64,000 nucleotides of DNA from Candidatus Alcium sp. F082 (GCA_001543395.1 LPNG01000001.1:87760-151759); one strand, 5' to 3'. Shown: positions 3,750 through 18,112, numbered from the stretch's first letter. Made by a program: numbers and translations. Notes: generated by a model not told the origin, from the sequence alone.

Positions 3750-5477
3750 TCACTTTTCACCCAGCTCCAATAGCTTTTCCTTGGCTTCTTTTGAGCCAAA
3801 CGATGCAGCTTTCCTAATTTTAGCAAGGGCTTTCTTTTTGTTAGGCTTCACGCCTTTCCCTTCGAGATAGAAAAGACCTGTTTTGTATTGTGCGTCGATT
3901 TCACCTCGACTGGCAAGTTGGGCATACCACTTATAGGCTTCTTTATTGTCCTGCGTTACAACCACACCCTGTTCATACAATTCAGCGAGTTGTCTCATCG
4001 CATAAAGATCCCCAAATTGCGCTGCCTTCTTATACCATTTAATGGCTTGTTGATAGTTTTGACCGATTCCATCTCCGAAGAAATAGCCATCTGCAATATC
4101 GCGCAATTCAGCACCTGTTTCAGGGAGGGTCAAAAGGATGCGTCCAGCCTTCTCATACCATCGGGCTGCTATCACGTCGCTTTGCTTCACCCCCTTGCCT
4201 TCATGATAACGCAACCCCAGTCTTTTGCATGCACGCCATGCGTCTTTAGGTATCATACGCCAAAGATCTTTATCGGTTTGCCGAGCCGATTTCCGATACC
4301 ACTTCACCGCTTCTTGATCGTTTTGCGCCACGCCCTCTCCTTTAGTGTAAAACTCACCCAGCATATACTGCGACAGGGCACGGCCTTGCTCTGCCGATTT
4401 CCTATACCACTTGAATGCTTCCTCTTTGTTTTGTTCAACTTTAACACCTTGGTAATACAACTCACCCAACTTGAATTGCGATTCCTCATGGCCTTGTTCA
4501 GCCGCCTTGGTAAACCATTTGACGGCTGTGTCATGATTCTTTCTAACACATTGGCCATCAAGATAGAAGAACCCAAGGCAATGCTGGGCAACAGGATCAC
4601 CTTGCTCTGCATATTTCTTGAACAACCTGAAAGCCTCCTTGGTGGTCCACCACTTTCCGTCTTCGTATGTATAGGGATAACCTATCCTATCCAAGTCGGA
4701 TTTATCAAGATAATCGGTGGTTTCGATATAATGCATCCACCAGTAAAACGCCTCTTCTTTGTCTTGCTTGACACGGTCCCCACGATACAGAAAACCAGAA
4801 AGCAAATATTGAGCCTCCGAATCACCGCCTTGAGCGGCTTTTCTGTACCATTTGATTCCCTCTTGATCATCCAAATCCCCTATCCCGACACCGACAATAG
4901 TGTCGTTGATATAGGTCTCGGCAATCTTGCATTGGGCCCACGCATCACCGTGATCAGCCAGGTTACGTAGGTATCTCAACATGGTTTCACCGTCACCATC
5001 GGGGCAACCGTTTTCTTCAATATGAAGCCATATCGTATCCGCCACATACCTTTGTGCTTCCAGGTCTCCTTGATCGGCCAACGCCCACATTTTCCTATAT
5101 TCCTCCGTGTCTTGGGGGCCAAATCCCGCACCCACCACAATCCAATCATCCAAATCGGTCCCTACAATACCAATGCCTTTGCCTGAATCGATGTCTGCAA
5201 GACTTTCAAGACGAAGCTTGGCCTCTTCGCTTAGTTTTTCTCCAGCTTTGGCTACGGCCTCAAAGCATTTTGCTGCTTCTACAAGGTCTTTCTCAACACC
5301 CTTCCCCTCATAATACAGAAGAGCCAAATAGTAGAGTGCCGTTGTATAACCCAATTCGGCCGCCTCTTTGTAGCATTTGGCAGCAGATTCATATTTCCTG
5401 CGGCAATGAAAAAGCCATCCTTGTTTGTACAGTTCTTCCGCCTTTGTTTTTTGATTGTTTGTGTTGTTTGATTTCAT
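3750..5477 (-). CDS. Sel1-like (SLR/TPR-family) repeat protein, 575 aa
   Basis: Many tandem ~36-aa units of the type A..WY.KAAEQG...AQY.LG..Y..G.GV.QD...A.KWY. No signal peptide seen. Confidence 0.85.
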   Translation of the reverse strand: MKSNNTNNQKTKAEELYKQGWLFHCRRKYESAAKCYKEAAELGYTTALYYLALLYYEGKGVEKDLVEAAKCFEAVAKAGEKLSEEAKLRLESLADIDSGKGIGIVGTDLDDWIVVGAGFGPQDTEEYRKMWALADQGDLEAQRYVADTIWLHIEENGCPDGDGETMLRYLRNLADHGDAWAQCKIAETYINDTIVGVGIGDLDDQEGIKWYRKAAQGGDSEAQYLLSGFLYRGDRVKQDKEEAFYWWMHYIETTDYLDKSDLDRIGYPYTYEDGKWWTTKEAFRLFKKYAEQGDPVAQHCLGFFYLDGQCVRKNHDTAVKWFTKAAEQGHEESQFKLGELYYQGVKVEQNKEEAFKWYRKSAEQGRALSQYMLGEFYTKGEGVAQNDQEAVKWYRKSARQTDKDLWRMIPKDAWRACKRLGLRYHEGKGVKQSDVIAARWYEKAGRILLTLPETGAELRDIADGYFFGDGIGQNYQQAIKWYKKAAQFGDLYAMRQLAELYEQGVVVTQDNKEAYKWYAQLASRGEIDAQYKTGLFYLEGKGVKPNKKKALAKIRKAASFGSKEAKEKLLELGEK

Positions 5478-5503: not shown

Positions 5504-6307
5504 TTAAAAAAGTTCGTCTTGATTCGATAACAGCGTTGATAGATTGGCAAAAAAGCCATCTTCATCCATCTGTTCCTCACCATTTCTTAACCTTTCGGCT
5601 TCCTCTTGCCATCCTGCTTTTTCGGCCCACTCCAAGGCTTTTGCACGGTTTTTCTTTGTGCCACATCCAATTTTATAGCACCCAGAAAGGGAACACATCG
5701 CCTCTTCGTGCCTCAATTCCGCAGCTCTTTTAAACCACACGAAAGCTCTTTTCCGGTAATGCCTAACACCCCAGCTATAAGAATCATAGATGGTACCAAG
5801 CATATACATTGCCTCGACGTTGCCTTGAACAGCCGCCTTTTTGAGCCAAAGTGCCGCCTCATGTTTGCGACTTCTCCATCCCATTTTTAGACAGTCGAAT
5901 TCGCTATATTGCCATCCAAGCTTGTATTGCATCTCAGCATAACCGTAGTCAGCTATTATCGTCAAGTACTCCAATGCCTTGTCAATATCCGCTTCCACGC
6001 CGATGCCATAATAGTATGCGTAATACATCCAATAAATGGCGTCTTGGTTGCCTTCTTCGCAAGCAGGCTGCAACACATTGTTGATAACAGTCTTCAATTG
6101 ATGCTTCTTCTTTCTCGTCAAAGGACGACATTGCTGATGGTAACGTTGTATGTTTTGGAGTATTTCCTCCTCCGTTTTTGGCAAGCAGTCAGACAAGCAT
6201 TGAATAGCCTCCTCAAGTGGGGTATGAGGCTCAGCATCTTCTGCATAAGGAAAATAGGTGAGGGTAAAATTGCCTTCGGGAGTAATGTTGGGATTTGTTG
6301 TTTTCAT
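5504..6307 (-). CDS. Sel1-like repeat protein, 267 aa
   Basis: The C-terminal half carries Sel1-type units (ALWLKKAAVQGNVEAMYMLGTIY; AFVWFKRAAELRHEEAMCSLSGCY; ALEWAEKAG). 26 nt upstream of the larger Sel1 gene. Confidence 0.8.
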   Translation of the reverse strand: MKTTNPNITPEGNFTLTYFPYAEDAEPHTPLEEAIQCLSDCLPKTEEEILQNIQRYHQQCRPLTRKKKHQLKTVINNVLQPACEEGNQDAIYWMYYAYYYGIGVEADIDKALEYLTIIADYGYAEMQYKLGWQYSEFDCLKMGWRSRKHEAALWLKKAAVQGNVEAMYMLGTIYDSYSWGVRHYRKRAFVWFKRAAELRHEEAMCSLSGCYKIGCGTKKNRAKALEWAEKAGWQEEAERLRNGEEQMDEDGFFANLSTLLSNQDELF

Positions 6308-6382: not shown

Positions 6383-6517
6383 TTAAAAAAACAAAGACAT
6401 GACCAAGCTAATAACAGCGATTACACCAAACACGATAGCAGCAATAACAAAGCACCCAGGCCCATCACTGCCACCCCCATCGAAATCACCTGTTTTTGGA
6501 TTATATTCCCAACCCAT
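6383..6517 (-). CDS. Small membrane peptide, 44 aa (MGWEYNPKTGDFDGGGSDGPGCFVIAAIVFGVIAVISLVMSLFF)
   Basis: Not in the track (<60 aa). The ATG is 12 nt after the E1 stop. The N-terminus carries the YNPKTGDF motif shared with two upstream small proteins, followed by a Gly-rich linker and one C-terminal hydrophobic helix. Confidence 0.4.
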   Translation of the reverse strand: MGWEYNPKTGDFDGGGSDGPGCFVIAAIVFGVIAVISLVMSLFF

Positions 6518-6529
6518 AAGTGTAAGTAT

Positions 6530-7741
6530 TTAAAATGATTGTAATAGTTCCTCAAATTCATCTCCTGTATCCAGCAGAATCTCATCCTTTGAACAAACAG
6601 CGCAATCATCTCGTCTACTGATATTGGCCCCGTACCAACGCATGATTGTAGGCATTGGGCCTGCTCCTGGCAAGATGTGCCAATTGGAGAATTTGCGTTC
6701 TCGTCTGTTTGCCCATAGATAGTAATTGTAAACAAGTTCATCTTCCAAACACGAAATGCCAGAAGCCTCACCTCTCGACAGCTCCACTAAGGCCAACTTA
6801 ATCATCATGTTACAGATAGGCTCAATATCAGCCGAAAGACCCACTTGAACCATCGCGTCAGCATCCTGGGCTGAAACGTATGCGGGAATTATGCCGGTCT
6901 GGCGAGCCGAGACCTCGTCAGTAATCTCTTCATGGACAACTCCAATATTTCCCACCAAACAGCTGTAGCAGGCCTGACCTGGATGATAGATAAATACATC
7001 ACCACCTTCGGCTCGAGTAAAAGCCCTTCCAAAGATACCAACTTTCTGGAAATCGACCAAAGCCTGCGACAAGGCAAAGCGGCTCGGGTTGTTGTCGGTG
7101 GCACAAATCACTAAATCAGCACAACACACAATTTCTTCAAGTCTTTGGTTGTTTTTGCTGATATCCAAGGGGTATTTGTGGATTTTTGTGTAAGGGTTTT
7201 TACCGAGAATAGATTCTTCGATGGCATCTGTTTTCAGCCTTCCCAAATCTTTGATGAAACAAGTGTGGCGGGCAAGATTATGAAGTTCTACCCGATCAAA
7301 ATCCACCAAAGAAAACTCTCCCACTCCAGCTTTTGCCAACTCAATGGCAATCTGTGACCCGAAACTGCCTAAACCAATAACGGCTACATGCTTTTTTTCC
7401 AAGATTCCGACTTCCAAAATACCTTTACTTCTGGAATACAAATTCTCCTTCGATGGTATCATTTGGGAATCCACCCGTTGAAGCTCATTATCAGTCTTAA
7501 CGAACACCTGTGGGCCGTCACCTCCGACAAAAACACACCAAAGAACATCATTCAAAAATGATACAATTGGGGCGGCCTTTGAGAAAAAGCACTTTGAAAC
7601 CCTACCGAAGGCATGTGCCAAAGGCTGAGTATGGAGATGCACCACGTCCTCTCCTTCCCATTCGTAAGCATAGCCACATTGAGATTCTGCTTCACCACTG
7701 GCAAAAGCATCCAACTCCTCTTGTGAAAGATAGACAATCAT
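6530..7741 (-). CDS. ThiF/MoeB/HesA-family E1-like adenylyltransferase with ~115-aa N-terminal extension
   Basis: VAVIGLGSFGSQIAIELAKAGVGEFSLVDFDRVELHNLARH (Rossmann/ATP motif plus the NLxRH/Q signature). Two CxxC pairs (CYSC, CAVC), as in Zn-binding E1-like enzymes. Confidence 0.85.
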   Translation of the reverse strand: MIVYLSQEELDAFASGEAESQCGYAYEWEGEDVVHLHTQPLAHAFGRVSKCFFSKAAPIVSFLNDVLWCVFVGGDGPQVFVKTDNELQRVDSQMIPSKENLYSRSKGILEVGILEKKHVAVIGLGSFGSQIAIELAKAGVGEFSLVDFDRVELHNLARHTCFIKDLGRLKTDAIEESILGKNPYTKIHKYPLDISKNNQRLEEIVCCADLVICATDNNPSRFALSQALVDFQKVGIFGRAFTRAEGGDVFIYHPGQACYSCLVGNIGVVHEEITDEVSARQTGIIPAYVSAQDADAMVQVGLSADIEPICNMMIKLALVELSRGEASGISCLEDELVYNYYLWANRRERKFSNWHILPGAGPMPTIMRWYGANISRRDDCAVCSKDEILLDTGDEFEELLQSF

Positions 7742-7914
7742 GCGAATCCATCCTTGGTCATGTCGGTTACAACCTCACCAGCGCTATGGGTGATACCCAT
7801 TGGGGCTTCCTCAAACTCACCCGTGTTGGGATTGAATACTAAATCCGTGATGGTGTTTCCGTTCTGCGTGTCTTTTACGACTTTGGCGATTTTGTTTGCT
7901 TTCTCTTCGTTCAT
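7738..7914 (-). CDS. Small protein, 58 aa (MNEEKANKIAKVVKDTQNGNTITDLVFNPNTGEFEEAPMGITHSAGEVVTDMTKDGFA), translationally coupled to E1
   Basis: Not in the track (<60 aa); translated by hand. Its TGA (7738-7740) overlaps the E1 ATG (7739-7741) as ATGA. Carries the FNPNTGEF motif. Confidence 0.45.
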   Translation of the reverse strand: MNEEKANKIAKVVKDTQNGNTITDLVFNPNTGEFEEAPMGITHSAGEVVTDMTKDGFA

Positions 7915-7926
7915 ATAAATTCGTAT

Positions 7927-8268
7927 TTAAGGTTCGTCAAATCTTTTATCGAATAACTCTTCTATCTGTTCACTTGTTAGCTGTATTCCGTCGGCTTCAC
8001 ATTCTTGAATGGTTTCTTCCATCATTTTACGATACCTATCCACAACGTGTCTTGCAGTATCAGCTATCAAATCTGATAATTCCTTCGGAGGTGCTATATA
8101 TGAAGCAAGTAGAAAACTCGGCACCTCACCTTCTTCATAATTGTTGGGATCTTCATACTCATCTGTTTCACAATTATAAATCAATTCGAGCTCACTTTTG
8201 GACTTGCAATTCTCGAAATCACCGGTCCTTTCATTATAGGCCAAATCGAACCAATCATTGTCTTCCAT
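7927..8268 (-). CDS. Acidic hypothetical protein, 113 aa
   Basis: Track ORF, strongly D/E-rich. The N-terminal DLAYNERTGDFEN matches the motif of the 58-aa and 44-aa ORFs. Sits between E2 and the 58-aa ORF with 12-17-nt gaps. Confidence 0.55.
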   Translation of the reverse strand: MEDNDWFDLAYNERTGDFENCKSKSELELIYNCETDEYEDPNNYEEGEVPSFLLASYIAPPKELSDLIADTARHVVDRYRKMMEETIQECEADGIQLTSEQIEELFDKRFDEP

Positions 8269-8285: not shown

Positions 8286-8714
8286 TTAGCTTTGATGTTT
8301 CAAATAATAACCGATAGGCGCGCCGGTGCTCAAATGTGCCTCATACATTTCAAGCCACAGACGGCACTTGATATAAACTTTATATAGGGAAACCCTATTG
8401 GTCCATGAGGAAGTCCCATAATGGCAAATCTGGGTACACCCGTTTTCGCTATTTAATGTATGCATAGAAGAACTCGGGGTGTCGAGTGGGTTGAGATTAC
8501 AATCATATAACATTTTGGTTACAAACACCTTGGGAATATTATCGGGAAACACATCCAATTCAATTTTCAAGGTATAAATATTCCCTCTATTGGTACGGGC
8601 TGCCATTACCAAATAAGGCTTTGCCGTATTCATATCCATGAAACGATAAATGTTTGAAGGTAGTTTCTCCTCCAACACTTTAATTTCAGCTTGATATCTG
8701 CTGTATTTCATCAT
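8286..8714 (-). CDS. UBC-like (E2-like) protein, 142 aa
   Basis: The start ATGATGA overlaps the JAB stop. YTLKIELDVFPDNIPKVFV resembles the E2 hP..hP flap, followed by HTLNSENGCTQICHYG, which resembles the E2 HPN...G.IC active-site region (Cys93/Cys97). Fold assignment is by pattern only. Confidence 0.6.
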   Translation of the reverse strand: MMKYSRYQAEIKVLEEKLPSNIYRFMDMNTAKPYLVMAARTNRGNIYTLKIELDVFPDNIPKVFVTKMLYDCNLNPLDTPSSSMHTLNSENGCTQICHYGTSSWTNRVSLYKVYIKCRLWLEMYEAHLSTGAPIGYYLKHQS

Positions 8715-9616
8715 AATCTATGTAGTTTATAGTATTCAATAAATGATTGTTCGGTTTCTCCTTCAATAGGTTGCCAGCCCAATCCAGATGCACATAAGCC
8801 TTCTGTTTCATAGGTAATCAGAGGAGAACGTTCGGGGAATCCCATTGGGAACAGAATATCAGTTGTTATCGCTTCTTCTTCGTTTTTTACAAGGATATGA
8901 ACAAGGCGGTTTTCATCAAGCGAAACATTGCAATCCATATCATCATGCTGTTCTTGAACAAAATCAAGCATCGTTTTTAGCACCTTGTTATTGCTCTTGT
9001 CGTTCATCCAATAACCTTTGGGGTATTGTTGTTTCACTCCTTGAACGACCATGGATTTGTATTTCATCCCGACCAGCACAGGGGTTTTGGTGTAAGGATG
9101 CCTCAATATCCGTTTCAAACGCCTGTCTATCACTTTTCTGAAAGGGCTTTCCATAGGCAACACTTCCCATTGTGATTCTTGGTAACAAGAAGTGCTTTCA
9201 ACGAAATTAAAGGCATTGATGGTTGATGTCGTGTTGGTGCAGTTACCAATACAAAGCAAGAACCAACGCAAATTATGGCGAAGCATGTTGTCATATATAG
9301 TATGGGCATCGTGGCCACTGGGATAAGCCAAACCCAGCTGATGATGGGAATGCCATTCGCCGATATGTTGCAGTCCAAATTCATGAACGAGGATTTCGCC
9401 CACTGTTTCAAGATAGTCAAGGTCTTGGTTGAAGAAAGTGGGCTGATGGTTGGCGTTGTCGCCAGGGCCAATGGCGTACAACACCACGGGAACACCTGCC
9501 GAAGTCCAATAGCCAAACAGTTGTCCGCCCGTCTCGATATGCGGATAGTCAAGGATGCAGCGCGAAAGATAATCCAATTCGCTTTGATAGACCAGAACAG
9601 TGTCGGCGGGTTTCAT
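8711..9616 (-). CDS. JAB/MPN (JAMM) metallopeptidase with ~150-aa C-terminal extension
   Basis: HIETGGQLFGYW (Glu) and EWHSHHQLGLAYPSGHD (H-x-H-x(7-8)-S-x-x-D JAMM motif). The track start at 9646 is TTG; the ATG at 9616 (MKPADTVLVY...) is preferred. Confidence 0.8.
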   Translation of the reverse strand: MKPADTVLVYQSELDYLSRCILDYPHIETGGQLFGYWTSAGVPVVLYAIGPGDNANHQPTFFNQDLDYLETVGEILVHEFGLQHIGEWHSHHQLGLAYPSGHDAHTIYDNMLRHNLRWFLLCIGNCTNTTSTINAFNFVESTSCYQESQWEVLPMESPFRKVIDRRLKRILRHPYTKTPVLVGMKYKSMVVQGVKQQYPKGYWMNDKSNNKVLKTMLDFVQEQHDDMDCNVSLDENRLVHILVKNEEEAITTDILFPMGFPERSPLITYETEGLCASGLGWQPIEGETEQSFIEYYKLHRL

Positions 9617-9629
9617 GGCATGTATGATT

Positions 9630-9953
9630 TTATCTTTGGTGAGCAATAATGATTTGTCTCATTTCGATGGCTTCCGATTTCAGGAAGCCGTGGATGGAAA
9701 CAAGGTTCCCGAACGCGAAGAACGATATGGTGGAAAAGCCCACAATGGGCGTTTCGATATGCACCAACGAGATACAGTTGTAAGGTATGTAAGTCGATTT
9801 TCCGCTGAAAATGAAAGGGCAACGCACCGTCACGCCGTTGTCATCGAAAATGATGGTCGGCGGGAACAAGGCGTTGCCTTGGGAAATTCGGGATGCGGTG
9901 TAAGTACGGAGCATGATATTCTGGTACTTTTCTTCGAGGTCACCATCTTGCAT
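9630..9953 (-). CDS. Hypothetical 107-aa beta-rich protein (possibly bacterial PH-like)
   Basis: Track ORF. The ATG at 9953 is 1 nt after the Zn-ribbon stop. Alternating hydrophobic strands (TIIFDDNGVTVRCPFIF...ISLVHIETPIVGFSTISFFAFGNLVSIHGF) end in a helix. No GG terminus. Confidence 0.5.
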   Translation of the reverse strand: MQDGDLEEKYQNIMLRTYTASRISQGNALFPPTIIFDDNGVTVRCPFIFSGKSTYIPYNCISLVHIETPIVGFSTISFFAFGNLVSIHGFLKSEAIEMRQIIIAHQR

Positions 9954-9954
9954 T

Positions 9955-10179
9955 CTAAATTAAAATCCATTCATGCGACCCTCCTTTTGAACAATCGGTG
10001 AATTTGGGGCGACCACTACTATGAACTATAATCCCGCATTTATCACAACAATAGGTATCATCGCCCACTTCTGAATTATATTGCCAATCATGTTCCCCTC
10101 CGTTAGGGCATGAAGATTTAGGCGGCATTCCATTAGTTTTTGTAATCGAACTACATTTTGGACAATCAAAGTTTTGCAT
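9955..10179 (-). CDS. Tandem zinc-ribbon protein, 74 aa
   Basis: Two copies of C-x2-C-x(13-14)-C-x-x-G-G-x-H-x-W: CPKC...CPNGGEHDW and CDKC...CSKGGSHEW, giving eight potential Zn ligands. Confidence 0.6.
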   Translation of the reverse strand: MQNFDCPKCSSITKTNGMPPKSSCPNGGEHDWQYNSEVGDDTYCCDKCGIIVHSSGRPKFTDCSKGGSHEWILI

Positions 10180-10224
10180 GGTTCTTTAACCCTAAATTCG
10201 TCATCGGGTGCAACTTCTTATTTC

Positions 10225-10254
10225 TGCCTACTCGTGAGCTTTTCGGCTTCCGCT
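10225..10254 (-). promoter_or_regulatory. Conserved leader motif, copy 1: minus-sense AGCGGAAGCCGAAAAG-N5-GAGTAGGCA
   Basis: Lies in the only long spacer of the operon (10180..10345), 45 nt upstream of the Zn-ribbon ATG. Both half-motifs recur at 15845..15877. Confidence 0.4.
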
Positions 10255-10345
10255 TAAAATTATCCAATCATTACCCCTAAAGATGCTTGGTTTATCCTTT
10301 CCAAAAACAGTACACTTTTTGGGGGTAGTATAATCTTATTTTGAA

Positions 10346-11680
10346 TTATTCTCCTCGTTCAATGGTATCGACTATAACACCAACACACGTTGCCATTGAA
10401 GGATTACAAATACCATCATCACCATTTAAAACGATGTGTTCGTCGGGATAACCTATTCGAACATCCATGCCTGTTTTGAACTCAACAAGTTGCTTTAGGT
10501 GTTTCATCATGGCTCCACCACCAGTTAGGACAATCCCGGCATACAATTGTTCTTCCAACCCCGTTTTAGTTATTTCACTATAAATAAGGTCAATAATTTC
10601 TTCTTCTCGACTTTGGATAATATGGGACAAGTTTTTGAATGATATTTCTCGAGGTCCCAATTTGCCAACGCCCGGTATGGAAACAACTTCATCTTCACTG
10701 TTTTCACTGGCTAAAGCAGAGCCAAAATTTACTTTCACTTCTTCGGCATAACGTTTGATTATTTTGCAGGAGGCACAAATATCCTTTGTAATAATACATC
10801 CGCCAAGAGGAACAGCAGCAACATGTTTGACTTTTTTGTCTTTATAGACAACTATGTCTGTTGTATTTCCACCAATATTAACGAGAACGACACCAACTTC
10901 CATTTCATTTTTATCAAGTACTGAATTGGCTGATGCTATGGGGTCTGGAATAATGAAATCTATCTTCACACCAGCACTCTGGAGGGGTTTCATGATGTTT
11001 TTGGCAGCAGAGGTTTGCCCAATGATGACATGGAAGTTGGCTTCGATTTTGTTACCTAACATGCCAACGGGGTTAGTGGCGAGCTCGCCATCGACATAGG
11101 TGTCTTGACGGATGACGTAAATGATTTCCTCACCAGGTGTCATGTTGATTTTAAAAGTATCGTTGCGCAAACGCTCCAGTTCCGCTTCCGAAATCTCAGT
11201 GTCATGGTGGTCACGCATCAACACGCCTCGATGTCGTATAGACTTAATCCGTTTATTAGAAAAACCGACACTTACATGGGTTATTTCTACTCCAGCTTCT
11301 TGCGAAGCTTGTTTTATAGCTGATTTGACCGCTTCGACAGAATAGCCGACTTCTTGTTCTTCTTCATTTAATGCAATTTGACTGCTCCCTATAACGACAA
11401 TCTTACCATTAGCATTTTTATATCCGATTACACATACAACTTTTGTGGCACCAATATCCAACCCGACAACGACACTTTTATTATCTTGCTTTTTTGCTTC
11501 TTCACCCAAGTTTTCTTCTTCATTTGAAGAATCTCCAAACTTTTCATTATTAGCAGATTCAACATCTATTTTTTTATCGCTATATTGTGTTGGCATTTCA
11601 TCAACACTTCCTGAATTATTTGAAGAATCTCCAAATAATTCGTTATAAGCAGCATCAAAGTCTATATTGATCGTACCCAT
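10346..11680 (-). CDS. FtsA-like actin-fold ATPase paralog with acidic repeat-containing N-terminal extension
   Basis: VVVGLDIGATKVVCVIG (phosphate-1), VLVNIGGNTTDIVVY (phosphate-2) and GIVLTGGGAMMKHL (adenosine motif), collinear with FtsA including the SHS2-type insert. The first ~70 aa carry a duplicated NE[LK]FGDSSN. It ends right after the core, without a C-terminal amphipathic helix. Confidence 0.8.
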   Translation of the reverse strand: MGTINIDFDAAYNELFGDSSNNSGSVDEMPTQYSDKKIDVESANNEKFGDSSNEEENLGEEAKKQDNKSVVVGLDIGATKVVCVIGYKNANGKIVVIGSSQIALNEEEQEVGYSVEAVKSAIKQASQEAGVEITHVSVGFSNKRIKSIRHRGVLMRDHHDTEISEAELERLRNDTFKINMTPGEEIIYVIRQDTYVDGELATNPVGMLGNKIEANFHVIIGQTSAAKNIMKPLQSAGVKIDFIIPDPIASANSVLDKNEMEVGVVLVNIGGNTTDIVVYKDKKVKHVAAVPLGGCIITKDICASCKIIKRYAEEVKVNFGSALASENSEDEVVSIPGVGKLGPREISFKNLSHIIQSREEEIIDLIYSEITKTGLEEQLYAGIVLTGGGAMMKHLKQLVEFKTGMDVRIGYPDEHIVLNGDDGICNPSMATCVGVIVDTIERGE

Positions 11681-11691
11681 ATTACATCTTT

Positions 11692-12012
11692 TTAAAAATC
11701 CAAACCACCACTAAATGTCGCCCCTGAAGCCGTGGTGATGTTTACGTCTGTAGCACCAAGATTTCTTTTGATATATGGGATATCCGTGTCTTCTATATGC
11801 TTTATAAGACTATGGATATAGTCTTTGTCACGAGAATAATTATCGCTTGAATACTTTTGATAAACCTCGTTCGACAATCCATCAATGTGCAATTCCTCTA
11901 CTCGCTTTTTATATCTTTCCATTGTGTCAATTAATTCTTCTTGGAATCCTTCCAAAAAATGTTGCAATTTCTGTAATGCTTCTAATTGTTTTTTTAATGA
12001 TTGCGTTGACAT
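11692..12012 (-). CDS. 106-aa helical-hairpin protein (WXG100-like architecture) with flexible ...SGGLDF C-terminal tail
   Basis: Two predicted long helices are joined by a HIDGLS turn (in place of W-x-G). The tail is GATDVNITTASGATFSGGLDF. It sits between the coiled-coil and FtsA-like genes with 11-12-nt gaps. Confidence 0.5.
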   Translation of the reverse strand: MSTQSLKKQLEALQKLQHFLEGFQEELIDTMERYKKRVEELHIDGLSNEVYQKYSSDNYSRDKDYIHSLIKHIEDTDIPYIKRNLGATDVNITTASGATFSGGLDF

Positions 12013-12024
12013 GTTGTTATGATT

Positions 12025-13089
12025 TTAGTGGGTGAATAAATGTTTTAGTTTGGCAAAAAAACTTCCATGTTTCATTTCATAGATAGTCTTGTCTCTATCT
12101 TTGAGTTGATCTTTTAACCGCGCTATCTCATCTTTCAATTCTTTAACGGCTTGCGACACTTTGGCTTTGAATGTTTCAAATTCTTTACTATAAGTATCGT
12201 TATTGTCAGCTAATTCTTGAATGTGGCGTCCTTGCAACTGCTCCATCTGCGTATGATAATGTTCTTCTTTGTCTGACAACTCCTTGTGGTGTTGCTCTTG
12301 CAACTGCGCAATTTGTTTGCTATGGTTTTCATTAACCAGCGCTATTCTATTTTCGTGTTCTTTCTTAAGCGACTGAAAATCAACAAGTGGAACCTCATCG
12401 GCATATTTCTTGGTCATCTCACTTATCTTGTCGTTCAATTCCTTGATTTTCCCGTTATACTCATTTACAATCTTTTTCCTCTCCGATTCAGCAGTCTTCA
12501 TTAAAGCTTCATGTTTGTCCGCTGCGCTTTCCACCTCTGCTTTATGCTCTGCTCTCTCTCTTGCAATCTGATCACGCAACCCACTAACTTCCTGCATGTG
12601 TTGTTCAACAAGTGTCTTTTCCCTGTCTTCAGCGGCACTCCTAAAGGCATCCATTGCTTCTTTGGCATTTTCAGCAACCTCTTTCATCTCTGATTTCAGG
12701 TCGGATTTTTCCTTTTTTGCCTTGTCTTGCAGCATTTTTATTTTTTCCTCATACTGTTTTTCGCTGCTTTCTTTCTCCATCTTTAGCGCTTCTATTTCTG
12801 TTTCAAATCGCGCAACGAGTTGTTTTTCCTTACTATTTGCAGAAACTATATAGGTTTCCATTTCTTCTTTGGCTTTGGCGCCAGCAGAAGCCATTTCCGC
12901 TTTTAAGTCCATCTTATCCTTTTGGGCTTGCTTGCGAAGCTTCTCAATCTCCAACTTATGTTTGTCTTTCAACTCTGCCAATTGATTCTCATAAGAATCT
13001 CTAATGGCATTTTCTTTTTCAAGAATTTCATTCTTGGTTTCATCATCAACATGATGGAGATAATTAAGATAAAAATTATAGTCTGCCAT
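12025..13089 (-). CDS. Lys/Glu-rich coiled-coil protein, 354 aa, with internal duplication
   Basis: Heptad-rich K/E/Q sequence throughout. LRKQAQKDKMDLKAEMASAGAKAKEEME... is repeated as LQDKAKKEKSDLKSEMKEVAENAKEAMD.... The start is 5 nt after the ATPase stop. Confidence 0.75.
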   Translation of the reverse strand: MADYNFYLNYLHHVDDETKNEILEKENAIRDSYENQLAELKDKHKLEIEKLRKQAQKDKMDLKAEMASAGAKAKEEMETYIVSANSKEKQLVARFETEIEALKMEKESSEKQYEEKIKMLQDKAKKEKSDLKSEMKEVAENAKEAMDAFRSAAEDREKTLVEQHMQEVSGLRDQIARERAEHKAEVESAADKHEALMKTAESERKKIVNEYNGKIKELNDKISEMTKKYADEVPLVDFQSLKKEHENRIALVNENHSKQIAQLQEQHHKELSDKEEHYHTQMEQLQGRHIQELADNNDTYSKEFETFKAKVSQAVKELKDEIARLKDQLKDRDKTIYEMKHGSFFAKLKHLFTH

Positions 13090-13094
13090 AGCCT

Positions 13095-15602
13095 TTATAA
13101 TTTGTATATTTTAATTTTTTCGATTTCCTCTTCCATTTCAGCAGAACGCAGATTGGCTGTGTAACTATTCCTTACTGTCGATTTGTCGGCACCGCCAAAA
13201 ACCTTGTATCCTTCACCACCTTTCAACTCTATGCCGATTCTCCACTCAAAAATGAAGTCTCTACTATCAAATATCCGTTCATAATGTTGCCAAGTATCCA
13301 CGTATGCAATGACATGAATGCCATATTCTGGACCATCGCTCACAATTTCAGTCAGTTTAGAACAAACAGATGTAGTCCTATCACCACGAAGGATTCTCAC
13401 TGGACGGAAATTGTATAGGTTATGAAAAGCCAACACCAATCTTGCATATTTTCCTTTTTGAGTCTTTCTTTTGTTTAACTCTACACATATCTGTTCAATA
13501 CGTTTTTCTATTTCCTCATCATCTGTTTCGACTCTCAAATTAGAATACTTTTTCTGCAATTCTCTATACTTTCCATATAAACCGCTTTCTTCGTTTGTTT
13601 TGTCGCAAACAATAAACCGGCCTTCTTCTGAGGTCTGTTTGACTATTTGCTCCAATGAATGGAAAATGACAGAAGTGGCTGCTTCTTGATCTTGGCCTAT
13701 CATAAGCACATTGTAGCCATTCTCTCTTTGTAGTGAATAATATATATGAGAATCACTCAGGGAGAAAGGCGTTCCAATATATACTTTAATCTTACCATCT
13801 GTTGGTATAAGATTCTGTATAGCAAGATTTGTGCTTATTTCAACAGGTGTTTCCCCATCAAATATATAGCGACTAAAGTCCTCGTTAATATTACTTTCGT
13901 ATTTTAATCGCAATTTTGAGACCATCTCCTTTATCCTTGTCTCATTCAAATAAGCAACTTGATAAATTACATTGTCCTTATAATTACCACCTGGGCAATA
14001 CACAGACTCGCCTTTTTTTGTGAGTGAACGCGGTGCATAATTATTGGGACCAAGAATCTTCGTACATTCATTTTCGGAATTGAGTCTCATTGAAATCCTC
14101 AAACCAAACTCATCCAATGAATGACCGATACTGAGGTCTCCCAAACCCTGCGTGGATAGAATCATGTTGATTCCAAAAGACCGTCCTCTTTTCCCAATAT
14201 CAGATATTCTGCCAGCGAAATACTCCGCTGCGCGATAGCTGCTATCAAACAGTTTTTGGAACTCGTCAATAATAATAACGTATCGAGGTAGTTTTTCTAA
14301 AGCATTCTTATTGTATTCCAACAAATTGGTTGCTCCAAGAGGTTTGTATAATTCTCCTCTACGAGTAATTTCATCATCAAGGTATTTGAAGACATTTTTT
14401 GCAAATTCCAACTCACTTTTTATCGAAAGCACCTTTACATGCGGCAAATCCTTGTAAACATTAAACTCCGTACCTTCCTTGAAATCAAGCAACAAAAACT
14501 GGACTTCTTGAGGAGAATAAAGCCATGCGGTATTACAAATGATGTTATGCAACAATACGGTTTTTCCCGAACCCGTGGAGCCGCCAATCAAACAATGATG
14601 ATATGATTGCCCTCGGCCATCTTCTACACTTAGAACAAAATTTTGAATATCAGTCGCGTTCACCTTTCCAATAGGAACTTCTATTCCATAACTTGCATCA
14701 GAAGTCCACATGTTCTTTCCTGTAAATTTATCGGCAAGGCTGACAGCAACATTTTGCGCCCTTTGGAGATTCTTGTTGATATAATCTTGTATTTCCTCCG
14801 TTTGAGTAGCATCGGGGAATGCAGTATCTAAGTGCAATGCAAACCGTCGAAGCATTTCATCATTAAGGAGGTTCTTGACATAGAATCTTTGGCCTTTTTC
14901 GTAAATCACCGTCATACTATCGAGCAAAGGCATTGGGTTGTACTCGTATTCTTTCCCAACAGTAAAGGAGGTATCAAAACTGATAATTGTAAAAAATCCT
15001 GCCTTTCTACCTGTCTTCACTATTTGCTTTAGCAACTCCCCGGTTTCCTTATCAATTGAATAAGGCACGTCTGTAAGAACGATAATATGATATGGCTTTG
15101 CCAGTTCTCCTGCATTTCCATTATAATCCACAAGCGTCTTATCGGCATATCTAGCACCTAAGATCTTTTGAATAACCATCGGGATGTTATTCTTCACTTT
15201 CAACAACTCTGATTTCAAATCATAAGTATCGGTCAAAATTCGTTCACCAATAATCTTGGAATTCAAATAAGAAAGGTTGATCAGATTGCCTCCTTGTCCC
15301 TTTGCATCGAACAATGTGAATTTGCACAAACCCGGAGGAATTGACAAAGCCAACCGAAGAGCCATCATTTGGATGGTGTTCTTTACGGTTTTTTCATTTT
15401 CTGGCGTAGTCAAAAAGCAAACACCGTTGGTCTGGTCAAGAGGAATCAATGCGGGAATTCTGTTACCTGTCACAGATTCATATTCGCCAATATAAATGCC
15501 TTCCTTGGGAAAAACATCAAAATCCTGCTCAACCAATTCAAAGTCCCTAGAATTGGCCGAGGTCTTGTGAGTTGTTTTATAGTAATCTTCGACGGTAATC
15601 AT
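13095..15602 (-). CDS. Soluble multi-domain FtsK/SpoIIIE-family (EssC/EccC-like) P-loop ATPase, 835 aa
   Basis: The central domain has Walker A CLIGGSTGSGKT and Walker B RYVIIIDEFQ, plus LSTQ. The flanking N- and C-terminal regions look like degenerate copies (FLTTPENEKT...KFTLFDAKG...YHIIVLTDVP; VLMIGQDQEAAT...ARLVLAFHNL). No TM or FHA region. Confidence 0.85.
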   Translation of the reverse strand: MITVEDYYKTTHKTSANSRDFELVEQDFDVFPKEGIYIGEYESVTGNRIPALIPLDQTNGVCFLTTPENEKTVKNTIQMMALRLALSIPPGLCKFTLFDAKGQGGNLINLSYLNSKIIGERILTDTYDLKSELLKVKNNIPMVIQKILGARYADKTLVDYNGNAGELAKPYHIIVLTDVPYSIDKETGELLKQIVKTGRKAGFFTIISFDTSFTVGKEYEYNPMPLLDSMTVIYEKGQRFYVKNLLNDEMLRRFALHLDTAFPDATQTEEIQDYINKNLQRAQNVAVSLADKFTGKNMWTSDASYGIEVPIGKVNATDIQNFVLSVEDGRGQSYHHCLIGGSTGSGKTVLLHNIICNTAWLYSPQEVQFLLLDFKEGTEFNVYKDLPHVKVLSIKSELEFAKNVFKYLDDEITRRGELYKPLGATNLLEYNKNALEKLPRYVIIIDEFQKLFDSSYRAAEYFAGRISDIGKRGRSFGINMILSTQGLGDLSIGHSLDEFGLRISMRLNSENECTKILGPNNYAPRSLTKKGESVYCPGGNYKDNVIYQVAYLNETRIKEMVSKLRLKYESNINEDFSRYIFDGETPVEISTNLAIQNLIPTDGKIKVYIGTPFSLSDSHIYYSLQRENGYNVLMIGQDQEAATSVIFHSLEQIVKQTSEEGRFIVCDKTNEESGLYGKYRELQKKYSNLRVETDDEEIEKRIEQICVELNKRKTQKGKYARLVLAFHNLYNFRPVRILRGDRTTSVCSKLTEIVSDGPEYGIHVIAYVDTWQHYERIFDSRDFIFEWRIGIELKGGEGYKVFGGADKSTVRNSYTANLRSAEMEEEIEKIKIYKL

Positions 15603-15605
15603 TGC

Positions 15606-15821
15606 TTATGGCAAGGTTTTGAGAAACTCTTGGTACATTTCCATGGCACTGCTAAAATTCTGTCTTTCATCCTTCAACAAATCCCTACCGTCAAAAATAT
15701 AACCGACATAAGTTGGATATTGGTCTGCGGAATTTTGGGTCAGTTTTTTATTTTGTACTTTTTCTTTATCTAACCAATCTTTAAACTCATCTCTTTTGTA
15801 ATAATTTGCTTTTCGGCTCAT
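15606..15821 (-). CDS. Hypothetical 71-aa protein, first gene of the operon
   Basis: Track ORF. Its stop is 3 nt before the ATPase ATG. Charged, probably helical; no recognisable motif. Confidence 0.5.
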   Translation of the reverse strand: MSRKANYYKRDEFKDWLDKEKVQNKKLTQNSADQYPTYVGYIFDGRDLLKDERQNFSSAMEMYQEFLKTLP

Positions 15822-15844
15822 AGTATTTACTTGTCTTTAATTAT

Positions 15845-15877
15845 TGCCTACTCTCTCCCAACTTTTCGGCTTCCGCT
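15845..15877 (-). promoter_or_regulatory. Conserved leader motif, copy 2: minus-sense AGCGGAAGCCGAAAAG-N8-GAGTAGGCA
   Basis: 23 nt upstream of the ATG of the first operon gene (15821). Same 16-mer and 9-mer as at 10225..10254. Confidence 0.4.
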
Positions 15878-16076
15878 GTCTTGGAGTAGAGGCAACAAAA
15901 AAAAAGCCCGCACCCCAATCCTATCATGAAGTGAAGGCTCTCGCATGCCCGAAGTAAAGATAAGGAAAGCAGTGCGTGCTTTATGGGCACACAACGCTCA
16001 CACTTCTGCCTTACTTCGTTCAAATTTGCGAGATTCTCACTTTCAGACAGGTGGTATCGCTACCGATTATATGCCG

Positions 16077-16084
16077 CAAATATA
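16077..16084 (-). promoter_or_regulatory. Candidate Bacteroidota -7 box TATATTTG (TAnnTTTG) for the FtsK/E1-E2-JAB operon
   Basis: Minus-sense ...ATTGTTGCAAAAGCGAAAAATATT-TATATTTG, with a TTG-containing -33-like element about 20 nt upstream. It would give a ~250-nt leader. Confidence 0.35.
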
Positions 16085-16183
16085 AATATTTTTCGCTTTT
16101 GCAACAATTTTTGCACATTTTTCCGGCAAACCACCAGCACTGCTATCCGAGGGCAAAAGTAGAGGTTTTAATAAAACCAGATG

Positions 16184-16199
16184 TGGTACTTTTCAGTAC
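16184..16199 (-). promoter_or_regulatory. 16-nt motif TGGTACTTTTCAGTAC, copy 2
   Basis: Identical to 6349..6364. Lies between the kinase stop (16250) and the candidate operon promoter. Confidence 0.35.
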
Positions 16200-16249
16200 T
16201 TATTATAGAGAAGGAACGGATGGAAAAACTCACTTGTCCACAGCTATTA

Positions 16250-18112
16250 CTACAAAGTGGAAAGATTCAGAAACTGTGGTTCGCCTCCGTTTTTAATGAT
16301 GGCAACTCCTTCCGAAACAATGATGGACTCGCTCTTGGGTACGACAACCCTGCCATTGATGTCGATAATGGTATAAAACCCGTCTTTGGTCTTTGCAAGA
16401 ATCATGGCAAAGCCCTCCAAATATGTCGTCCGAGCATAAGTACCCGGCTCAATGCTCATCTTCCCCCCTCCATTAACCACACCAAAATCATTTTCATATC
16501 GACCAAGCAAAAAGGCACCATCTTCAGCTTTTTTTCCATAAGGATAGTTCAGATTGGTGACATGCTCCATACGAACATTGACAACACCATACCCTTCGTC
16601 AGTCTCAGCAAGGGCAAGGTCATTACTATTGAAATCTAAGCGGTGCTTGAATATCGGTTTCTCCAACTCCTTGCCATCCATTCCTATATAACCATACCGT
16701 CCAAGCTTTTTCACAGGTATTATTCCCTTTTTGCTGAATGCTAATTCCACATCATTATACTCAGCTTCAGCAGGTAGAGGATTTAGGTAAATCACATAAT
16801 CTAGAGTCCGTCCACGTCTTCTTCCGATATAAAAATGATAGTCCTCTGCCAGTGTAAGTATTTCTCTGTAATTAAACAAATATTGCCGCCCATTTGGCGC
16901 GACCAATCCATACTTCCCATCCAGGCAACAAACAGCATACCCGTCTTTAAACGCTTTGGCATCTTGATAGATGGCTGGGATAACCTCCTTCCCATTTCTG
17001 TCAACATACCCATATAGGCCATTCGTTTCATCCAAAAAAAACAATGGCGATGCAGTTTTGCTTTCCAACTCAGCACGTTGATACTGTTCAAGATAACTTT
17101 GTGCAAGGGAATCTTGGTCTAAGTCTGTCGGGACATCGGAATCTACGGGAATTTGTACATGGACAATATCCAACTTTGGCTTGATCGGAATTTCCACCTT
17201 AATAGTATCATGCCTCTCTTCAACAATAAAAACCGTGTCGGTCACTATTTCAGATTGTGTCTGGATTTCATCGTCAGTAACAAGTTGTTTGTCTGCTTTT
17301 TCGTTTATGGTTTTGTTGGTGAGAAACCACACCAATAACGGCACAACGAACACCAAGAGCGACACCCATCGTGAAAGAAAATCCCTAAAACGAAGGGCTT
17401 TTCGCACCTCATTGATGTTTTTATGCCGTTTTGAGGCTTTTTTCCGCTGGCATTTGCGCACAACCCCTCCATAGCGGTGTGGAAACAACGCCTTGATGAC
17501 AAAACCCAAGGAAAAGATGTCGCTCGTGACATCCGTCTGCTCGCGGTTCGCCAACTCGGGCGCGGCATAGGCTTCCGTGCCTCCTGTGGCCTTGTCGCAG
17601 TTGGAATCGCTGTCGGCATAGCCGAAATCTATCAGCTTGACATTGTGTCCGTTGCGAGTTATAAGGATATTCGCAGGCTTCAAGTCGTTGTGAACCACCT
17701 GATGGCTATGAACGAAGGCCATGGCATCCAGCAACTCGCCAAGAATGCGTTTCTTTTCTTTATGGGAAGGCGATGTCTTCAAAAAATCCGACAAGGTCGC
17801 ACCATCGATATATTCCATGACGATGCACGGCCCCACTTCGGCATCCTCGCGCCAGCCAATGCAACGCACAACATGTTCGTTGCCATACAAACGCTCCAGC
17901 AGCCTATACTCGCGCTGCAACCTCGCGAGGTTCTCTGCCAATACACCCTGGTCCCGATTCAAGGCTTTGAGGAACAGCTTACGCTCTCCGCTGAGCACGG
18001 AGTACAAAACACTGTAGCCCGCACCATGATAAGGCAAGCGTCTATAGTCGTGAAACTGGGAATAGCTGGCAACCATCTCCCCAAACGATCCCGAAGTGAA
18101 ACAATCTTCCAT
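16250..18112 (-). CDS. Ser/Thr protein kinase with one TM segment and C-terminal WG-containing (KWG-type) repeats
   Basis: Kinase subdomains HNDLKPANILI, DFGYA and AYAAPE; TM segment WVSLLVFVVPLLVWFL; then repeated units of the type GLYGYVDRNGKEVIPAIYQDAKAFKDGYA / GKYGLVAPNGRQ / GRYGYIGMDGKELEKPIF. Confidence 0.85.
   Translation of the reverse strand: MEDCFTSGSFGEMVASYSQFHDYRRLPYHGAGYSVLYSVLSGERKLFLKALNRDQGVLAENLARLQREYRLLERLYGNEHVVRCIGWREDAEVGPCIVMEYIDGATLSDFLKTSPSHKEKKRILGELLDAMAFVHSHQVVHNDLKPANILITRNGHNVKLIDFGYADSDSNCDKATGGTEAYAAPELANREQTDVTSDIFSLGFVIKALFPHRYGGVVRKCQRKKASKRHKNINEVRKALRFRDFLSRWVSLLVFVVPLLVWFLTNKTINEKADKQLVTDDEIQTQSEIVTDTVFIVEERHDTIKVEIPIKPKLDIVHVQIPVDSDVPTDLDQDSLAQSYLEQYQRAELESKTASPLFFLDETNGLYGYVDRNGKEVIPAIYQDAKAFKDGYAVCCLDGKYGLVAPNGRQYLFNYREILTLAEDYHFYIGRRRGRTLDYVIYLNPLPAEAEYNDVELAFSKKGIIPVKKLGRYGYIGMDGKELEKPIFKHRLDFNSNDLALAETDEGYGVVNVRMEHVTNLNYPYGKKAEDGAFLLGRYENDFGVVNGGGKMSIEPGTYARTTYLEGFAMILAKTKDGFYTIIDINGRVVVPKSESIIVSEGVAIIKNGGEPQFLNLSTL

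Follow-up and report, generated by a model that had tools for sequence, protein, structure and literature searches.

Why should three small and otherwise dissimilar proteins, encoded around a single adenylating enzyme, carry the same short stretch of sequence? We addressed this question for 64,000 nucleotides of DNA from Candidatus Alcium sp. F082 (GCA_001543395.1 LPNG01000001.1:87760-151759; this whole stretch is the window below), in which an E1-type enzyme is surrounded by three small open reading frames (ORFs), here called TM44, S58 and S113, that share the pattern [YF]N..TG[DE]F[DE]. An earlier note had read the pattern as a linear motif near a protein terminus and proposed that it acts as a common docking or recognition element or as a shared modification site. 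Our comparisons across related loci, together with structure prediction, provide good support for a different description, in which the motif is a folded beta-hairpin module present on two kinds of protein, a modifier-like tag (S58) and hairpin-only partners of the tag machinery (TM44 and S113).

The shared motif as a predicted beta-hairpin

The E1 gene, the three small ORFs and their motif copies are located as follows.

6383-6517, minus strand: TM44, an ORF of 44 aa that starts MGWEYNPKTGDFDGGG...
6479-6505, minus strand: hairpin motif in TM44, Y5-N-P-K-T-G-D-F-D13 (WEYNPKTGDFDG), found by pattern search
6530-7741, minus strand: E1, 403 aa, with a ThiF/MoeB-type adenylation domain at residues 114-302 (PF00899, E=3.8e-32)
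7738-7914, minus strand: S58, an ORF of 58 aa that contains ...DLVFNPNTGEFEE...
7810-7836, minus strand: hairpin motif in S58, F27-N-P-N-T-G-E-F-E35, from pattern search, alignment and AlphaFold2 (AF2)
7927-8268, minus strand: S113, an ORF of 113 aa that contains ...DLAYNERTGDFEN...
8155-8178, minus strand: degenerate second hairpin copy in S113, YNCETDEY, residues 31-38
8212-8238, minus strand: hairpin motif in S113, Y11-N-E-R-T-G-D-F-E19, found by pattern search

The strict pattern has exactly three matches in a six-frame translation of the whole window, all in minus-strand ORFs around E1 and within 3 nt of where the earlier note had placed them. Neither 300 first-order Markov shuffles of the window DNA nor 500 shuffles of the residues in all long reading frames produced a match, and the shorter core N..TG[DE]F is observed three times in the window against 0.04-0.05 expected. 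Public records call all three ORFs as genes (KWW26257, KWW26259 and KWW26260, 'hypothetical protein F082_78/80/81 [bacterium F082]'), and searches of Pfam, NCBIfam and PADLOC returned no match for S58, S113 or TM44. The motif is indeed close to the N terminus of TM44 and S113 but central in S58, where it occupies residues 27-35 of 58. The degenerate second copy in S113 (LIYNCETDEYED) is not conserved in the S113 homologue of the closely related locus L001.

We compared the window to 80 related loci, which were pulled by an E1 profile from one-genome-per-species contigs (1.0 Mb in all) and which come mostly from gut and rumen Bacteroidales (Prevotellaceae, Muribaculaceae, Segatella copri), with some Fibrobacter and others. 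A relaxed form of the motif, [YFW][ND]..[TS][GND][DEK][FWY], gave 103 matches on the E1 strand and none on the opposite strand, and nearly all of the 103 are found within a few kb of E1. What orthologous operons conserve of these ORFs is the motif, and the lack of conservation that the earlier note had named as its refutation does not apply. The small ORFs also behave as conserved coding genes, as judged from the GenBank calls and from the ratio of nonsynonymous to synonymous differences (pN/pS). S58 is under strong purifying selection, with a pN/pS of 0.05-0.13 at a pS of ~0.65, where synonymous sites are near saturation, and TM44 is under purifying selection as well (pN/pS = 0.17).

In an AF2 model of S58 calculated from 55 aligned sequences, a helix at residues 3-15 is predicted with low confidence, two strands at 23-28 and 33-38 with a predicted local distance difference test (pLDDT) score of ~85, and a third strand at 47-53 with ~78; pLDDT values for the sheet overall are 75-86. 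The hairpin spans residues 23-38 and is made up of a first strand, an N/D-P-x-T-G turn and a second strand, with the P-x-T-G of the motif forming the turn. The same secondary-structure elements are predicted for P0055, a natural fusion of tag and E1. A first combined alignment (A2) was dropped because MAFFT had set stand-alone tags against the E1 C terminus, and alignments A3 and A4 were used.

The motif positions covary in a manner that points to the same fold. Among 75 distinct motif instances, Asn at position 2 is accompanied by an acidic residue (Asp/Glu) at position 9 in 44 of 46 cases, and Asp at position 2 by a non-acidic one (Arg, Val or Ile in most cases) in 29 of 29 (Fisher p = 9e-19, which overstates independence, as the instances are related). 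The rule is followed both by the tags (acidic/non-acidic, 21/0 for Asn and 0/17 for Asp) and by the hairpin-only proteins (23/2 and 0/12), and it recurs in several clades. We considered the covariation as the signature of a common reader and rejected this idea, as the hairpin states of tag and partner are discordant within loci L008, L018 and L040. Because the rule recurs in both classes of protein and in several clades, and yet tag and partner of one locus need not agree, the pairing of positions 2 and 9 represents an intramolecular contact, and tags and partners build the same structure. Taken with the AF2 models, the covariation rule replaces the linear motif of the earlier note by a folded hairpin.

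The weakest matches to the tag profile are Kelch and Tectonin propeller proteins (P0285, P0292, P0297), which align over the hairpin columns only and share with the tag the widely reused hairpin sequence [VI][FY][DN]Px[TS]xx[FW]. This comparison supports the hairpin reading and marks the motif sequence as a general solution for a tight hairpin. A Foldseek search of the S58 model against the PDB returned no match at E<=0.001 and no ubiquitin-like protein (Ubl) among the top 50, the best match being MbtH-like with E=1.5; given the small size and medium confidence of the model, this result counts only weakly against a beta-grasp fold. It is speculation that S58 represents a trimmed beta-grasp (strands 1, 2 and 5 plus the helix).

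A modifier-like tag and its hairpin-only partners

E1 and the small ORFs are encoded next to two further enzymes.

8286-8714, minus strand: E2-like protein, recognized by PADLOC E2 models (E=1.3e-5)
8711-9646, minus strand: JAB/JAMM peptidase, PF14464 above cut-off, with the full E...HxH...S...D motif

JAB, E2, a small ORF and E1 follow one another in this order across the related loci, with E2 present in 79 of the 80 and JAB in 77, and the conclusion that the three cassette enzymes are intact, as predicted from their sequences, is well supported. His-85, Cys-97 and His-98 of E2, which has no match in a Pfam scan, are invariant in 80/80 sequences, and Glu-38, His-99, His-101, Ser-110 and Asp-113 of JAB in 73/73; JAB in addition carries a conserved extra C-terminal domain of ~150 aa. 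E1 combines its adenylation domain with a conserved N-terminal domain of ~110 aa, which is beta-rich in the AF2 model and has no sequence relative in the PDB, and contains two CxxC (zinc) pairs. Sequence and structure matches in the PDB place the adenylation domain closest to MoeB, ThiF, UBA5, MccB, Cap2 and BubCD, with BubCD as the best structural match. The only invariant residues in its crossover loop (C261-V298; residues ~262-297) are Glu-272, Gly-283, Ile-285 and Tyr-288, the Tyr being part of the sequence IPAYVS.

A member of the S58 family, 56-89 aa in length (median 61), is located between E2 and E1 in at least 71 of the 80 loci. A word-indexed homologue search with S58 yielded 8 close relatives only, all of them labelled 'hypothetical' and none with a Pfam domain; the wider family came from the loci and from an exhaustive profile search (60-odd tag clusters). 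Its members start with an amphipathic helix, which a polar loop connects to the hairpin with the consensus DLV[FY][ND]PxTG[DE]F[ER]QV, and, after another loop, they close with VVTxMTxxGFA. Leu-25, Val-26, Phe-34, Gly-40, Val-49, Thr-50, Met-52, Thr-53, Gly-56, Phe-57 and Ala-58 are invariant in 55 aligned tags and tag-E1 fusions, and Pro-29 and Gly-32 are found in at least 90% of them. The C terminus reads G-F-A in 55 of 71 tags and G-[YW]-A in another 6 (61/71 for G-[FYW]-A), and P-[FY]-[FY] in the remaining 10. A stop codon follows exactly after the Ala in 24 of these 71 genes, 1-3 extra residues (including A, C, F, K, Q, L, V, S and HGV) are added in 34, and the frame continues into E1 in 13. 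In the window, the S58 tail is KDGFA, and its stop overlaps the E1 start (ATGA). The tag-E1 fusion P0055 (481 aa; Segatella copri-type) stands for 1,702 member sequences, and proteins in which tag and GFA are followed by a linker and a second hairpin are found in other species (P0234, P0236, P0259 and loci L025 and L061).

A conserved C terminus, variable extensions, and fusions to enzymes or from head to tail are the marks of ubiquitin-like modifiers that are made as precursors, as seen in the Bil and Bub systems (PMC10557695, PMC11601596). We read S58 as a processed, E1-activated modifier because it has such a conserved C terminus, short variable extensions and fusions, and is encoded beside E1, E2 and JAB; its assignment as the ubiquitin-like, modifier-like tag of the operon is well supported. 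In the Fibrobacter loci L032, L035 and L037, the tag ORF just upstream of E1 opens with a remnant, 'MKNIIVTAFSAEGFA|G...' (...AEGFA|G...), which repeats the C-terminal strand and the GFA site of the tag. The remnant looks like the relic of a tandem poly-tag, or like a pro-peptide with its own cleavage site.

TM44 and S113 lack the third strand and the GFA end, and it is well supported that they are hairpin-only partners rather than tags. A motif scan detected 46 such non-tag ORFs in 36 loci; a small number of these ORFs are tag variants that escaped filtering or matches by chance. Here, the motif sits at the extreme N terminus: residue 5 of the protein is the motif aromatic in 21 of the 46, and in 31 the aromatic falls within residues 3-6. 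The typical start, M-A-Y-[RK]-Y-N-E-[KR]-T-G-E-F-E-[DE], leads into a low-complexity linker, 25 of the 46 contain one or more transmembrane helices, and some have Ig/PKD-like repeats or a DnaJ-type zinc-finger domain past the linker. Values of pN/pS for partner genes range from 0.17 to 0.49. Two hairpins per protein are present in S113, in the partner from L018 and in P0253.

TM44 is a tail-anchored protein in which a Gly-rich linker separates the hairpin (residues 5-13) from a transmembrane helix at the C terminus. Its ORF begins 13 nt past the E1 stop and has orthologues in L001-L003, those of L002 and L003 reading MNYNSRTGEFDG..., and analogous small transmembrane proteins follow E1 in ~20 loci. 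S113 is soluble and contains the N-terminal hairpin (residues 11-19), the degenerate copy (31-38) and an acidic/helical C-terminal part. It shares 38% identity with its L001 homologue at a pN/pS of 0.69, the motif being the sole conserved part and the remainder evolving fast. Soluble hairpin-only proteins occupy the same slot between E2 and tag in L009, L013, L019, L020 and L047.

Two representative proteins from other metagenomes join both classes in one chain. P0262 can be written as tag-...MTEDGFA-ADRV-RYNDTTGEFE-linker-TM, and P0253 as tag-...GFA-ARASPKVC-RYNDATGEFE...RYNEATGEFE-linker-TM (TM, transmembrane helix). In L082, the locus of P0262, the fusion (L082:3353-3814) is encoded directly upstream of JAB-E2-E1 and there is no separate tag gene between E2 and E1; as the fusion is the only source of tag in this locus, the tag there would arise only by cleavage from a membrane partner. 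These fusions tie the two motif classes together functionally, and they show that a GFA joined by a peptide bond ~4 residues before a partner hairpin is a natural state. Ahead of the L082 fusion come an M16 peptidase and a coiled-coil protein of 410 aa; the C terminus of the latter, by eye, looks like a NYN/PIN-type nuclease.

Candidate readers of the hairpin

The operon JAB-E2-(S113)-S58-E1-TM44 can be viewed as a complete conjugation cassette, and we infer conjugation itself. JAB would trim tag precursors after the invariant ...MTxxGFA, the ThiF-type E1 would adenylate the exposed Ala carboxylate, and the tag would pass to Cys-97 of E2 and then to a target. The pairing of an E1 having a Tyr in its crossover loop with an E2 having Cys-97/His-98 suggests unusual transfer chemistry. 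In the explanation that we prefer, and that we judge to have an even chance of being correct, the hairpin is the handle by which the cassette enzymes grip the tag, and the hairpin-only partners copy this handle to dock on the same machinery. E1 would be the most likely reader of the hairpin, because tag-E1 fusions are frequent; further candidates are E2, JAB, the Sel1 proteins and the ClpB-like ATPase of other loci. TM44 and S113 would display the tag hairpin at their extreme N terminus on a flexible linker, and TM44 would dock on the cytoplasmic side of the membrane, where it would serve as a dedicated acceptor modified via its N terminus or else as a membrane anchor for the enzymes. The acceptor idea fits with the fixed N-terminal position of the partner hairpin and with the natural GFA-partner peptide fusions. 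The common recognition element envisaged in the earlier note thus still offers the best reading of the operon, but the three ORFs are not equivalent, S58 being the modifier and TM44 and S113 hairpin-only partners.

The handle can be placed in a wider scheme, which we regard as a rather long shot. Here, gut Bacteroidales would perform conjugation with a ~60-residue, non-beta-grasp tag ending in GFA, and tail-anchored partners would be acceptors on their N-terminal amine. The tag would become reversibly anchored to the membrane in a protein analogue of Atg8 lipidation, tag-transmembrane fusions would represent a pre-conjugated form that is released by JAB, and, in most species, conjugates would be passed to a ClpB-like unfoldase.

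Several observations weigh against the handle explanation. There is no invariant Cys in the E1 crossover loop, and the chemistry may differ from the textbook scheme. A beta-grasp fold was not detected in the tag by Foldseek or AF2, and the tag ends in Ala, not in Gly. The hairpin is predicted with no higher confidence in the P0055 fusion with E1 (pLDDT ~70) than alone (~85). As the pattern is generic, being found in Kelch and Tectonin proteins, sharing it is in itself no proof of a common binding partner. Finally, partners are accessory and not core components, since they are detected in only 36 of the 80 loci and are nearly absent where the tag hairpin is variant: loci with a VWDKNxMTFxEL hairpin and a PF[YF] end, with FDxxxGNLTT and GYA, or with YLDxxDGKxK mostly lack hairpin-only partners. 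L047 is an exception, in that its extra protein bears that locus's own variant hairpin.

Alternatively, the hairpin might be read downstream of conjugation, as a tether or degron for a ClpB-like AAA+ unfoldase, or for the Sel1-repeat proteins of the window, so that tagged and hairpin-bearing proteins are delivered to the unfoldase as in the Pup-Mpa, ClpV-VipB and SspB-ClpX pairs. We consider this unlikely, but it has support from the gene neighborhood. In 53 of 72 loci, the 72 being those with enough downstream sequence, the gene directly after E1 or after the small transmembrane gene encodes an AAA+ protein, either of the two-ring ClpB type or, at 1,266 aa, with four AAA domains (L013:4716-7301, L016:8274-12074 and L067:2998-5172 are examples of the AAA+ genes). 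A hairpin on a long low-complexity linker also has the architecture of the tethering peptides of adaptors, and several hairpins per partner would suit an oligomeric reader. However, the window and 18 other loci have no such AAA+ gene, and yet 12 of these 19 keep hairpin-only partners; natural fusions of the tag to enzymes of the cassette involve E1 only, and none joins it to an AAA+ protein. A ClpB-like gene is absent from the entire 64 kb of the window, and from L001 and L002, where Sel1-repeat proteins are found in its place. In the window, these are the following.

3750-5477, minus strand: Sel1-repeat protein of 575 aa with 10 repeats
5504-6307, minus strand: Sel1-repeat protein of 267 aa, in the position of the ClpB-like AAA+ gene of most other loci

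Also against this reading, Sel1 proteins are found with the cassette in no loci other than the closest ones and L004.

The three hairpins may, on the other hand, have no shared function at all, the motif being a very good hairpin sequence that was inherited through duplication of tag fragments or reached independently. The Kelch and Tectonin blades, which match the tag profile over the hairpin only, argue for such a generic fold solution, and evident tag duplicates or truncated copies are found in L013, L019, L020, L025 and L061. We nevertheless hold this to be quite improbable, as partner genes are conserved (pN/pS 0.17-0.49), the hairpin is fixed in position with its aromatic at residue 5, and the motif is the only part of S113 that is conserved relative to L001. 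In addition, all 103 relaxed matches lie on the operon strand, almost all within a few kb of E1, and other species have fusions of partner and tag.

It is very unlikely, in our estimate, that the hairpins act as homotypic adaptors, pairing with each other edge to edge in a beta-sheet that joins tag, TM44 and S113, in the manner of the effector-associated domains of conflict operons. There is a precedent in other bacterial conflict operons, in which the Ubl and the effector each carry a fused copy of one small module (Kaur et al. 2020, PMC7159879). The hairpins of TM44 and S113 would have free edges, as they lack the third strand, and tandem or doubled hairpins exist. Against homotypic pairing, however, the hairpin variants of tag and partner do not go together within a locus (L008, L018 and L040 are discordant), partners (Y-[RK]-Y-N-E-[KR]) and tags (L-V-[FY]-N-P-x) differ systematically, and 44 of the 80 loci have a tag and no detected partner.

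The shared modification site of the earlier note, of which phosphorylation of the nearly invariant Thr would be an example (a Ser/Thr kinase gene is found on this strand, 8 kb upstream), finds no support and is almost certainly wrong, as the kinase and its neighbors are not associated with the cassette in any of the 80 loci, even in L001 with 95% E1 identity, and as T-G is accounted for by the geometry of the tight turn, the same pattern recurring in Kelch/Tectonin-type hairpins.

The genes around the cassette in the window are listed here.

9630-9953, minus strand: 107-aa protein that overlaps the JAB start and co-occurs only in the closest loci, L001-L003
9955-18112, minus strand: upstream run on the same strand, including a double zinc-ribbon (9955-10179), a 106-aa protein, a 354-aa coiled-coil protein, a 71-aa protein and the next three genes
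10346-11680, minus strand: FtsA-like actin-fold protein with an N-terminal extension of ~65 residues
13095-15602, minus strand: FtsK/EssC-like ATPase
16250-18112, minus strand: Ser/Thr kinase with WG repeats
18903-20252, minus strand: AAA_14/DUF4143 ATPase
23799-25439 and 26865-29402, minus strand: two proteins bearing type IX secretion C-terminal sorting domains, of which one is a C10 peptidase that also contains an I69 inhibitor domain
39121-47955, minus strand: ORF of 2,944 aa

We rejected the upstream FtsA-like, FtsK/EssC-like, coiled-coil and kinase genes as members of the cassette, as they are absent from all 80 related loci, and the run at 9955-18112 looks like a separate module. The extension of the FtsA-like protein holds two copies of another short repeat, AAYNELFGDSSNN and SANNEKFGDSSNE, which resembles the hairpin motif only in 'YNE..GD'. 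The surroundings of the cassette differ among loci and include integrases, a CARF-adenosine deaminase and AAA_14/DUF4143; with such varied neighbors, the cassette itself looks like a mobile accessory module. A phage origin was rejected, as a search of IMG/VR viral contigs found no E1 relative. An AAA_14/DUF4143 ATPase gene is found near the cassette both in the window and in the unrelated locus L017 (L017:3332-4636), which may reflect coincidence or a loose association in mobile regions. The type IX sorting-domain proteins and the 2,944-aa ORF fit a Bacteroidota origin of the window.

The cassette among known conjugation systems

Protein conjugation by the bacterial relatives of ubiquitination (type II CBASS, Bil and Bub) has been demonstrated only recently, mostly in the context of phage defense. 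To our knowledge, all bacterial ubiquitination-like systems except CBASS use beta-grasp modifiers. The present cassette, which is abundant in human and animal gut Bacteroidales, appears to be an undescribed variant of bacterial ubiquitin-like conjugation that is widespread in these organisms; our literature search found no description of a JAB-E2-mini-tag-E1-ClpB cassette, an absence that is no proof of novelty. If our reading is correct, the cassette adds a minimal non-beta-grasp modifier with an Ala C terminus, an E1 in which a Bub-like Tyr loop is paired with a Cys E2, and a genetic link to a ClpB-like unfoldase that recalls the tag-plus-unfoldase logic of Pup and ubiquitin. It would also add a 16-residue recognition hairpin that is found on a conjugatable tag and as a built-in module of partners. 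Such a mutable and transplantable handle would provide a simple way to ask how systems without an E3 choose their partners.

We compared the cassette to systems with related components. Bil type I/II (6d/6c) and Bub (6e) operons encode the same trio of a ThiF-type E1, a UBC-like E2 and a JAB/JAMM peptidase together with a small modifier gene, and in our case, as in BubAB and BubCD, the modifier comes as a precursor with additional C-terminal residues or as an enzyme fusion. The crossover loop of Bub E1 has an invariant Tyr and no Cys (PMC11601596), and Tyr-370 of BubCD corresponds in this respect to Tyr-288 in the cassette E1. In contrast to Bil and Bub, whose defining features we took from PMC10557695 and PMC11601596, the cassette has a modifier of 56-89 aa that ends in Ala (GFA) and has no beta-grasp match, and it is accompanied by a ClpB-like AAA+ gene and by hairpin-only partners. 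Whereas Bil E1 has the domain composition IAD-AAD-CYS, the cassette E1 has, in 403 aa, one adenylation domain and a new N-terminal domain; with this single-domain E1 and the order JAB-E2-tag-E1, the cassette falls outside Bil. Bub E2 contains an invariant Ser where the cassette E2 has an invariant Cys-97, and DUF6527 (BubE), a serine protease encoded in Bub operons, was not found among the 10 cassette proteins scanned. The cassette is also outside operon types 6a-6e as described in Iyer et al. 2006.

Type II CBASS, with Cap2 and Cap3, resembles the cassette in having a homodimer-type E1, an E2 and a JAB, and in activating a short conserved C-terminal tail rather than a classical Ubl. Indeed, the best library matches for the cassette E1, E2 and JAB are the PADLOC CBASS E1-E2, E2 and JAB models. 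The cassette differs from it in that it has no match to an effector model or to a CD-NTase, the protein whose C terminus the CBASS E1 acts on, has separate E1 and E2 genes (Cap2 is an E2-E1 fusion) and encodes a dedicated small tag. The Pup system (Pup, PafA, Dop, Mpa) likewise employs a ~60-residue, non-beta-grasp tag whose processing exposes a reactive C terminus, and its coupling to an AAA+ protein has a counterpart in most cassette loci. Its PafA and Dop enzymes, however, are glutamine-synthetase-like, in contrast to E1, E2 and JAB, and no PafA-like match was found among the cassette proteins scanned; the Pup tag is disordered and ends in GGQ/E, whereas ours is a predicted three-stranded sheet that ends in GFA.

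With Rad23-type UBL domains, Ub-L40 and Ub-S27a, the cassette has in common that one module serves as a tag that can be conjugated and also, on other proteins, as a built-in N-terminal part that cannot, and linear ubiquitin fusions are, like the tag, fused head to tail to unrelated proteins and have to be cut by a deubiquitinase. In ubiquitin-domain proteins, however, this module is a whole domain, compared with a hairpin of ~16 residues here. The MccB and PaaA enzymes of ribosomally synthesized and post-translationally modified peptides, which are among our matches, are ThiF-type enzymes with an extra N-terminal domain that act on the C terminus of a short peptide encoded by an adjacent gene; in the cassette, an E2 with a catalytic Cys, an active JAB, the tag fusions and the C-terminal extensions point to conjugation and not to a secreted peptide. 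Kelch and Tectonin proteins share the hairpin sequence solution but use it in four-stranded blades repeated 5-7 times, compared with one or two isolated hairpins, and no Kelch or Tectonin model matches S58, TM44 or S113. Among E1-E2-JAB operons in general, the cassette has the adenylating E1, the UBC-like E2 whose catalytic Cys has a His close by, and the JAMM-type JAB, and it departs from them in that its modifier gave no beta-grasp match and does not have the C-terminal GG that processing exposes. In kind, the cassette belongs with type II CBASS, Bil, Bub and 6A-MBL, although not one of these systems agrees with it in every feature.

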